From: Camelus ferus
Lineage: Eukaryota
Reading direction: 5' to 3'
NCBI RefSeq assembly: GCF_009834535.1
Contig: NC_045696.1
Location: forward strand, 16,246,001 to 16,310,000
Length of the DNA stretch: 64,000 bases
Shown here piece by piece: positions 8,472 to 55,604 of the stretch. The translations under genes were made by a program, and so were the position numbers. Below the pieces are notes generated by a model that saw only the letters and a program-made list of their open reading frames with translations, made no database searches and was not told the origin of the DNA. The number at the start of each line of letters is the position of its first letter. Position 1 is the first letter of the stretch.

Positions 8472-8572
8472 TGGCAAAGGGGGTAGAGCTCAGTGGTAGA
8501 GCACATGCTTAGCATGCAGGAGGTCCTGGACTCAACCGCCAGGACCTCCATTTAAAAAAATAAATACATACA
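8472..8572 (+). mobile_element. tRNA-Ala-derived SINE (camelid Vic-1 type), short form
   Basis: A-box agctcagtgg, degenerate B-box, A-rich tail, perfect 11-bp TSD TAAATAGCTCA (8461-8471, 8573-8583). Confidence 0.9.
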
Positions 8573-41912: not shown

Positions 41913-42044
<132 letters not shown>

Positions 42045-42597: not shown

Positions 42598-42751
42598 TCC
42601 GCTATATTTGTGATATAGGAATTATGAGGATACACGTTTATTTCTTTGTGCCTGTTTTATGTGCACACATTAGGCATTGAGAATTGAAACTTTTTTTTGT
42701 CCATGTATCTTCGGATCTTTGATAAAGAAAAGAATTCCCTGTTCATTGTAA

Positions 42752-42758
42752 GCACTTT
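42752..42758 (+). promoter_or_regulatory. miR-17/20a/106 family seed site GCACTTT
   Basis: Seed match seen directly, in the known APP UTR context just 5' of the G-rich tract. Confidence 0.65.
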
Positions 42759-42892
42759 TACGGGCGGGGGGTGGGGGGAGTGCTCTGCTGGTCTCAAATT
42801 AACCAAGAATTCTCCCCAAAAAAACTTTCTTCAGGATGACTGTACAGAATCATTGCTTATGACCATGATAGCTTTCTACACTGTATTCCATA

Positions 42893-42907
42893 AATAAATT
42901 AAATAAA
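42893..42907 (+). terminator. Proximal APP poly(A) signal cluster (AATAAA-TT-AAATAAA)
   Basis: AATAAA at 42893-42898 and 42902-42907 with an overlapping ATTAAA. APP is known to use two poly(A) sites. Confidence 0.8.
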
Positions 42908-43032
42908 ATGACGCTGGGCAAGAGTGTTCTTTGAAAGATGGTTACAGACATGAAATATTCAGTGCAATTTAGGGTGGGGAAACAGAGGCAGACTCAGTTT
43001 CTTTTCCAGTTTCAGTCTAAAAAACACTTTAT

Positions 43033-43140
43033 GTGCTGGATATATAGCTCAGTGGTAGAGCATGTGCCTGGCATGCATGAGGTCCTGGGTTCAACCCCCA
43101 GTGCCTCCAGTAAGGGGGGAAAAGAGAAAAAGAGAGCAAT
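43033..43140 (+). mobile_element. tRNA-Ala-derived SINE inserted in the APP 3' UTR
   Basis: tatagctcagtggtagag...ggttcaacccccagtgcctcc head, purine-rich tail, approximate TSD aaaac(a/t)ctttat. Confidence 0.9.
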
Positions 43141-43269
43141 AAAACTCTTTATTTATGATACCAAAAAAGGATGAAAGTGGAAGGGACAAAATCAGGGAAT
43201 GGGGAAGACAAGCCTGGACAAACCCTTCAAGATTTGACTTCCCTTTGTATAAAATGGTGTTTTCATGTA

Positions 43270-43275
43270 AATAAA
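43270..43275 (+). terminator. Distal APP poly(A) signal AATAAA
   Basis: AATAAA with upstream TGTA elements and downstream GT-rich sequence (ttgtgctggtgtg). Confidence 0.8.
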
Positions 43276-43544
43276 GGCATTGTTGGAGGAGCGCCATTGT
43301 GCTGGTGTGCATGATTCCATGGTAACAACCTTCTGATCATTGAGTCATCGAAGATGAGTGAGAACCTTTAACGTACCTAATGTTGAACACCCACACCTAT
43401 ATGGTGTCTCACTTACAAGTTGGGGATGAAATTGGGGCCAACAGTCACCTCCCAGTGCAAGTAGAGTGCTTCATAGACCTAATTCAGTTTTCACTCCATC
43501 CAAACTATTTGGCGGCCGTATCTTGGTCCTCAAGTTTGACCCTG

Positions 43545-43880
43545 TCTTTGTCCATTCTGGTTACGGTAATAAAATGTCTCAGACTGAGTGGCTGATAAAC
43601 AACAGACATTTACTTCTCACAGTTTTGGAGGCTGGAAGTCTGAGATCGGGGTGCTGGCACAGTCAGGTGGGGGCCCTCTTCTCCTGGTACCCTCACGTGG
43701 TGGAAGGGGCCGGGGACCTCTCCGGCACCTCACTGAGGACTGCACTAATCCCGTGTCTGAGGCCTCCACCCTCATGACTGCTCATCACCCGACGGCCCCA
43801 CCTCCTAGTGCCATTACATTGGGCCTTAGGATTTCAACATGTGAAGTTTGGGGGGACACAGACATACAGACTGTCTAACA
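43545..43880. mobile_element. MaLR LTR (MLT1A-like)
   Basis: ataaacaacagacatttacttctcacagttttggaggctgg...ggggacacagacatacagac. Confidence 0.8.
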
Positions 43881-47815: not shown

Positions 47816-47965
47816 GGAGGAGGGAGGGTATAGCTCAAATGGTAGAGTGCATGCTTAGCATGCACAAGGTCCTGGATTCATTTTTTTAAACTAATAATAA
47901 ATAATAATTAATAATAAATAAATAGACCTAATGACCTCCCTCCATAAAAATATTTTTTAAAAATA
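47816..47965 (+). mobile_element. tRNA-Ala-derived SINE (Vic-1 type)
   Basis: Head gggagggtatagctcaaatggtagag, tail gacctaatgacctccc. Confidence 0.88.
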
Positions 47966-54059: not shown

Positions 54060-54204
54060 TTTGTTTTGCTTTGTTTTGTTTTTTGTTGGGGGAGGTAATT
54101 AGGTGTATTTATTTATTAATGGTGGTACCAGGGGGTTGAACCTAGGACCTTGTGCATGCTGGGCACGCCCCTCCACCACTGAGCTATACCCTCCCCCCGC
54201 CCCG
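54060..54204 (-). mobile_element. tRNA-Ala-derived SINE (Vic-1 type)
   Basis: Reverse-complement head; perfect 12-bp TSD AGATTCAATTCT (54048-54059, 54205-54216). Confidence 0.92.
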
Positions 54205-55459: not shown

Positions 55460-55604
55460 ATATTTTTCTTTGTTTTGCTTTTCTTTTTTCTTGTAGGGGA
55501 GGTAGTTAGGCTTATTTATTTATTTAATGGACGTACTGGGGATTGAACCCAGGACCTCATGCATGCTAGGCATGCACTCTACCACTGAGCTATACCCTCC
55601 CCAC
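55460..55604 (-). mobile_element. tRNA-Ala-derived SINE (Vic-1 type)
   Basis: ggggattgaacccaggacc...ccactgagctataccctcccc reverse-complement head. Confidence 0.92.

Follow-up and report, generated by a model that had tools for sequence, protein, structure and literature searches.

The 3′ UTR of the APP gene of Camelus ferus contains a tRNA-Ala-like retroposon between its proximal and distal poly(A) signals, and a further AATAAA is found where this insert meets its target site. This arrangement raises the question whether the insert supplies APP mRNA with a third 3′-end or is simply carried along in the long transcript. The locus was analysed in a 64,000-nt stretch of genomic DNA, called the window throughout, and all positions refer to it. 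The reading that we favour, and consider fairly probable, is that a vic-1-type SINE travels as a passenger in the long APP isoform, its AATAAA being mostly read through and the 3′-ends being formed at the ancestral sites.

The end of APP and the anatomy of the insert

The exon at 41943–42041 matches the Pfam family APP_amyloid (PF10515, E 3.4e-18), which identifies the gene as APP. Based on this match and the sequence, the last coding exon with its stop codon was placed at 41943–42044 on the + strand, the stop codon being 42042–42044. The 3′ UTR contains four AATAAA hexamers, which start at 42893, 42902, 43138, and 43270. The first two belong to the proximal poly(A) signal cluster (42893–42907, + strand), which consists of two AATAAA and one ATTAAA with TGTA at 42841 and 42882; its use as a poly(A) site is taken over from the literature on human APP. 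The distal AATAAA (43270–43275, + strand) is accompanied by TGTA at 43246 and 43266 and by a GT-rich tract at 43297–43309. Both signals lie where the preliminary description had put them. Another AATAAA (43568–43573) was seen approximately 300 nt beyond the distal signal, with no upstream TGTA, in what gives the impression of an old repeat.

The effect of the human 3′ UTR extension on translation was reportedly mapped to its first 8 nt. If so, the responsible segment precedes the insert by more than 100 nt and would be retained in an intermediate isoform. That APP undergoes alternative polyadenylation and that its long form is translated better is reported second-hand in the available text of PMC6422928 and PMC12742782, which gives support of the same kind to the earlier statement that APP uses two poly(A) sites and that the segment between them affects translation; PMC9261399 does not mention APP poly(A) sites.

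The tRNA-Ala-like retroposon occupies 43033–43140, between the proximal and distal AATAAA signals and in sense orientation. Its tRNA-like core (43038–43109, + strand) scored 55.8 bits against the Rfam tRNA model (gathering threshold 29) and was called tRNA-Ala(GGC) by ARAGORN; it has two adjacent mismatches in the acceptor stem and no CpG is left in it. Within the core, 43045–43055 and 43089–43097 (both + strand) match the usual consensus patterns of the Pol III A box and B box, respectively. On the 5′ side the core is preceded by a 5-nt leader (43033–43037, + strand), unlike the G-rich leaders of the seven other related copies in the window, and on the 3′ side it is followed by a purine-rich, degenerate tail (43110–43140, + strand), which lacks the TAAA repeats and the 3′ block of the other copies. 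Of the 35 bases in the tail region 43110–43144, 20 are A. The preliminary description had assigned about 43033–43140 to a SINE head with an A box and a B-box-like motif, lying between the APP signals; the element and both boxes stand, but the head ends at 43109 and the rest is tail.

The element is flanked by a 12-bp target-site duplication (TSD) with 11 of 12 identical positions (43021–43032 and 43141–43152, + strand), and of 1500 random window loci, 13 showed a repeat as good in the same geometry. The left copy can possibly be extended by two A residues in 5′ direction, giving a 14-bp TSD with two mismatches, in which case the T of AATAAA represents a further substitution, in the A run of the duplication. 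The candidate intermediate poly(A) signal AATAAA (43138–43143, + strand) spans the junction of the tail and the right TSD, exactly as described earlier. The anatomy supports the conclusion that 43033–43140 is a TSD-flanked retroposon of tRNA-Ala type. Such a vic-1-type copy would have entered the distal APP 3′ UTR at an A-rich site, in sense orientation, through target-primed reverse transcription, presumably by the L1 machinery.

Two peculiarities of the sequence may be mentioned here. At the anticodon position (43070–43072), the insert has GGC, whereas all seven other copies have AGC. Inosine occupies this base in tRNA-Ala(AGC) and is copied as G, so RNA editing of the template might account for the difference, though a plain A-to-G mutation is an equally simple explanation. 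The other peculiarity is that the mismatch in the right TSD makes the TSD complementary to the AG-rich tail, by which 43131–43150 is predicted to form a 6-bp hairpin (−4.6 kcal/mol) with the AATAAA in its 8-nt loop. This mismatch could have arisen by a template-switch mutation or by chance.

In six genome-sized sequencing runs from two studies, one of which may itself be the source of the window sequence, 0.99–1.00 of the 99 sampled words of 42600–43600 were present, and consequently the insert is neither an assembly error nor private to one animal. Without the 120-nt insert, the first proximal hexamer and the distal hexamer would be 257 nt apart. The human APP extension is reportedly 258 nt long, a figure said to go back to de Sauvage 1992 and Mbella 2000, and the closeness of the two lengths weakly supports a lineage-specific insertion. 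Metagenome contigs were searched for exact matches to a 24-base pattern from the right flank; the search returned 0 loci and thus does not inform on presence or absence, and no paper on this APP insertion was found in the open-licence literature.

The junction AATAAA and the 3′-ends of APP RNA

A functional Pol II poly(A) site has a U/GU-rich downstream element and upstream UGUA, and a T-rich stretch at +1 to +15 and G runs further downstream can help cleavage. The context of the 43138 hexamer was compared with that of 147 other AATAAA motifs on both strands of the window. The 100 nt upstream of it contain no TGTA, while two occur at each of the three ancestral hexamers and at least two at 15 of the 147. 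In the +20 to +60 interval, only four T residues were counted (5 of 147 are as low, background mean 12.3), although the ancestral sites, with 12–14, do not exceed the background average, so this measure alone does not pick out real sites. Purines make up 35 of the 41 positions of the same interval, a value reached by a single background hexamer (1/147). On the other side, eight T residues fall in +1 to +15 (14/147 as high), three GGG runs follow further downstream (6/147 as high), and the hexamer itself is predicted to be unpaired with a probability of 0.94–0.99, which makes it the most accessible of the four in the UTR (0.18–0.77 for the others). The T-rich stretch that had been noted after the hexamer is present (43145–43156); however, it occupies +2 to +13, before the expected cleavage point, and not the position of a downstream element. 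The site possesses an accessible AATAAA and has neither the U/GU-rich downstream element nor the upstream UGUA. Because no TGTA precedes it and the region downstream is purine-rich and T-poor, AATAAA at 43138–43143 looks, by its sequence context, like a weak candidate poly(A) signal.

The presence of the insert in RNA was assessed by the share of 99 sampled words of 42600–43600 found in each sequencing run. The 14 best-ranked RNA or probable-RNA runs (five studies), of which one is on record as RNA and 13 were guessed to be so and which may include DNA or read-through, gave shares of 0.65–0.87. The expected shares are 0.30 for transcripts ending at the proximal site only, 0.55 for an end at the new site, 0.54 for a distal end without the insert, and 0.69 for a distal end with it; the probability of hitting at least 64 of 99 random words under these models is 1e-13, 0.026, 0.020, and 0.85, respectively. 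With 64–65 of 99 words, the likelihood is approximately 5–10 fold higher for read-through to the distal site than for a stop at the new one. Long APP RNA, as the word shares indirectly indicate, probably carries the insert and runs through to the distal site; these shares speak for the existence of the long RNA and not for the frequency with which the middle site is used.

The passenger explanation draws directly on the anatomy, the TSD, and the family and motif context, and indirectly on the presence of the insert in long RNA. According to it, the insertion would have lengthened the long APP isoform by 120 nt and would be tolerated there. RNA polymerase II would mostly read through the junction AATAAA, since the site lacks the upstream UGUA and the U/GU-rich downstream element, and the 3′-ends would be formed at the ancestral proximal and distal sites, with at most a minor fraction (less than ~10%) near 43160.

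The alternative that survives best, although we regard it as unlikely, is that the junction AATAAA is a real third APP site, used at 10% or more in competition with the distal site and giving an intermediate isoform that falls short of the long form by ~130 nt. In its favour, the hexamer is canonical and accessible by prediction; the T-rich stretch adjoins it, CA is found at +19/+20, and the G runs follow downstream. Moreover, sense SINEs provide poly(A) signals in dog (available text of PMC11699766), as do transposable elements (TEs) in human and mouse (available text of PMC2553571). Nevertheless, upstream TGTA is absent, the downstream region is among the most purine-rich when set against those of the 147 background hexamers, and the word shares fit read-through better by the factor given above. 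The text of PMC2553571 also states that non-conserved or lineage-specific TE-linked poly(A) sites are used far less often than those that are conserved. An A6 run (43163–43168, + strand) occupies +20 to +25 relative to the new hexamer and is an internal-priming hazard; located at the expected cleavage point, it could produce a false 3′-end exactly there in oligo(dT)-based data.

The case resembles the Can-SINEs in dog 3′ UTRs as far as these are described in the available text of PMC11699766: a sense tRNA-derived SINE, AATAAA, and a TSD starting with A4 are common to both. In the camel UTR, however, there is a single AATAAA, which sits on the tail/TSD junction upstream of an intact ancestral site. 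The same source reports that sense Can-SINEs inside UTRs tend to lose AATAAA while copies at UTR ends keep it, and the single AATAAA of the APP insert, the minimum short of none, echoes this loss. Likewise, in the TE-associated lineage-specific sites (PMC2553571, available text), a TE gives the upstream part of the site, as it does for the candidate middle site in the last exon of APP; those are actual sites with low use, whereas here we have a candidate only. SINE-donated poly(A) signals are an already described class, to which the APP insert would add a case.

Related copies in the window and the family label

BLASTN and profile searches detected eight related head copies within the 64-kb window, to which all copy counts refer, including the one in the APP UTR. 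The other heads lie at 8484, 20833, 39641, 47829, and 63504 (+ strand) and at 54188 and 55594 (− strand). The core of the UTR copy differs from the majority of the other seven at 8 of 67 positions, and the others differ at 4–15. AATAAA belongs to the family as a whole: in the 90 nt after the core, all seven other copies have it, one to five each, and the UTR copy has a single one. TAAA repeats are carried by the other copies, and a shared 3′ block was recognized in five of the seven by pattern and in six by eye; the UTR copy has neither. A primer of LCA37, a camelid microsatellite, matches this block (available text of PMC7296511), in line with a camelid context. In Rfam tRNA score, the UTR copy is the best of the eight, followed by one with 53.8 bits, and five of the eight reach the Rfam threshold. 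Selection for tRNA shape was considered and rejected, as the top score is ahead by a margin of just 2 bits.

Several properties of the other copies were recorded on the way. Three copies reside inside APP introns, all in sense orientation and with one to five AATAAA each. ARAGORN called the copy at 55528–55599 a tRNA-Ala(AGC) gene, which is probably a false annotation. In the copies at 47829 and 20833, the family sequence breaks off within or just after the B box; in the former (47829–47880), a T run follows the break and the 3′ block is still there.

We tentatively take the family of these copies to be vic-1, which originated from tRNA-Ala. The vic-1 SINE of Camelidae (Lin et al., 2001) appears in the available text on SINEBase (PMC3531059) as a simple SINE of camels, and vic-1 is unmentioned in the available portions of two camel TE surveys. 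The UTR copy shares with vic-1 the features of a simple tRNA-derived SINE in a camelid genome, namely head plus tail and many copies (eight in 64 kb), and it differs from the window neighbours filed with vic-1 by the absence of the 3′ block and the TAAA repeats and by another leader. Since the 3′ section of the other window copies is absent from it, we file it putatively as vic-1 type and not as a proven member.

The same differences, together with the best tRNA score of the eight, would also suit an element that is no typical vic-1 copy but a processed pseudogene of tRNA-Ala or a member of a separate and older subfamily. We find this rather improbable, since the insert has a 5-nt 5′ extension as the other copies do, no CCA is added after the discriminator base, the divergence of its core is typical of the eight-copy set, and the listing of vic-1 as a simple SINE (PMC3531059, available text) fits a head plus tail. 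Such an origin would alter the label alone and not the poly(A) question.

Pol III signals, RNA folding, and significance

Next to the junction hexamer, the insert ends in two overlapping motifs that are moderate Pol III terminators, TCTTT and TATTT (43146–43154, + strand), beginning 2 nt after AATAAA. TCTTT (at 43146) exists because of the single mismatch between the two TSD repeats, and TATTT begins at 43150. The UTR copy is alone among the eight in this spacing. The first terminator-like run lies 76–105 nt past the last AATAAA in five of the other seven copies; of the remaining two, one has no terminator-like run in 230 nt and the other has a T run before any AATAAA.

By these motifs the insert might be an accidental T+ SINE, transcribed by Pol III from its internal promoter, stopped at 43146–43154, and giving an AAUAAA-tailed RNA of ~115–120 nt from the APP 3′ UTR, which we hold to be very unlikely. 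Its A and B boxes fit the consensus and it has no CpG to methylate; most old SINE copies, however, are silent. In the available text of PMC8466645, T+ SINEs are those that combine AATAAA with such a terminator and whose Pol III transcripts are polyadenylated, and in B2 constructs TCTTT and TATTT caused 50% and 42% termination, respectively; a short distance from signal to transcript end favours polyadenylation (available text of PMC8466645 and PMC10572872), which would speak for the APP arrangement. Nevertheless, polyadenylation of T+ transcripts requires the beta and tau signals, the latter being a CFIm site or a polypyrimidine tract before AATAAA (available text of PMC10572872), and the purine-rich tail of the UTR copy, which has no TGTA, contains no tau. 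The low rating given here follows from this missing signal. Compared with the T+ SINEs B2, Dip, and Ves (as far as described in PMC8466645 and PMC10572872), the insert is alike in its A box, B box, and AATAAA adjoining TCTTT/TATTT. It is unlike them in that its terminator comes from the target site and not from the family, the other seven copies lacking the arrangement, and in that it has, besides the absence of tau, no oligo(A) after the terminator. For the proposal that one substitution in the right TSD created a T+-like unit, whose AAUAAA would serve both a Pol III RNA of ~118 nt and a camelid-only intermediate end of APP mRNA, we see a slim chance.

The fold of the insert was also examined, bearing in mind that folding programs often miss real tRNAs lacking modification. 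The cloverleaf reached −12.8 kcal/mol and the best fold −25.1 kcal/mol. In context, the acceptor and anticodon stems were predicted to pair with a probability of 0.00 and the D and T hairpins with 0.95–0.99, and the core gave a fold z-score of −0.81. The region 42910–43300 gave z −2.31, but as a single region chosen after the fact it was not counted as evidence. A long hairpin rich in G-U pairs (43026–43083) was also predicted, in which the left TSD and the odd leader pair with the anticodon arm; it would bury TGCATG and block the cloverleaf. Of the earlier claim that long APP mRNAs carry a tRNA-like module, the word shares indirectly uphold the presence of the insert in long RNA, while the stem probabilities do not bear out a folded module.

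TGCATG is indeed at 43074–43079 (+ strand), but its status as a special Rbfox site was rejected: it is a family trait, being present in five of the seven other copies, the + strand of the window contains 29 such motifs, and the one in the insert is predicted to be base-paired (unpaired merely 0.007–0.09). No functional explanation is needed for either the tRNA-like fold or TGCATG. An Rfam match to mir-1825 at 43642–43684 was dismissed as chance (E 0.55, 20.4 bits vs 70). A tRNA-mimic fold of the insert, cleaved by RNase P/Z in the manner of MALAT1 mascRNA and leaving APP mRNA with a non-polyadenylated 3′-end, is hardly credible on these models in spite of the high Rfam tRNA score and the well-formed D and T hairpins, since there are two adjacent acceptor mismatches, a closed-acceptor cloverleaf was not predicted and would be less favourable than the best fold by 12 kcal/mol, the acceptor and anticodon stems are predicted not to pair in context, and the fold z-score of the core is −0.81.

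Returning to the passenger explanation, a vic-1-type SINE that is mostly read through would be of little import, serving as a camelid lineage marker and making the long APP UTR 120 nt longer. Were the middle site used, it would be another poly(A) site donated by a SINE, here in a gene for which human experiments show an effect of UTR length on translation (available text of PMC12742782), and a natural test of the flanking elements that make AATAAA work. If the Pol III reading were true, it would mean that target-site sequence can give rise to the end of a T+ SINE, and an AAUAAA serving both polymerases would represent the origin of a T+ SINE caught in the act inside a neuronal disease gene.
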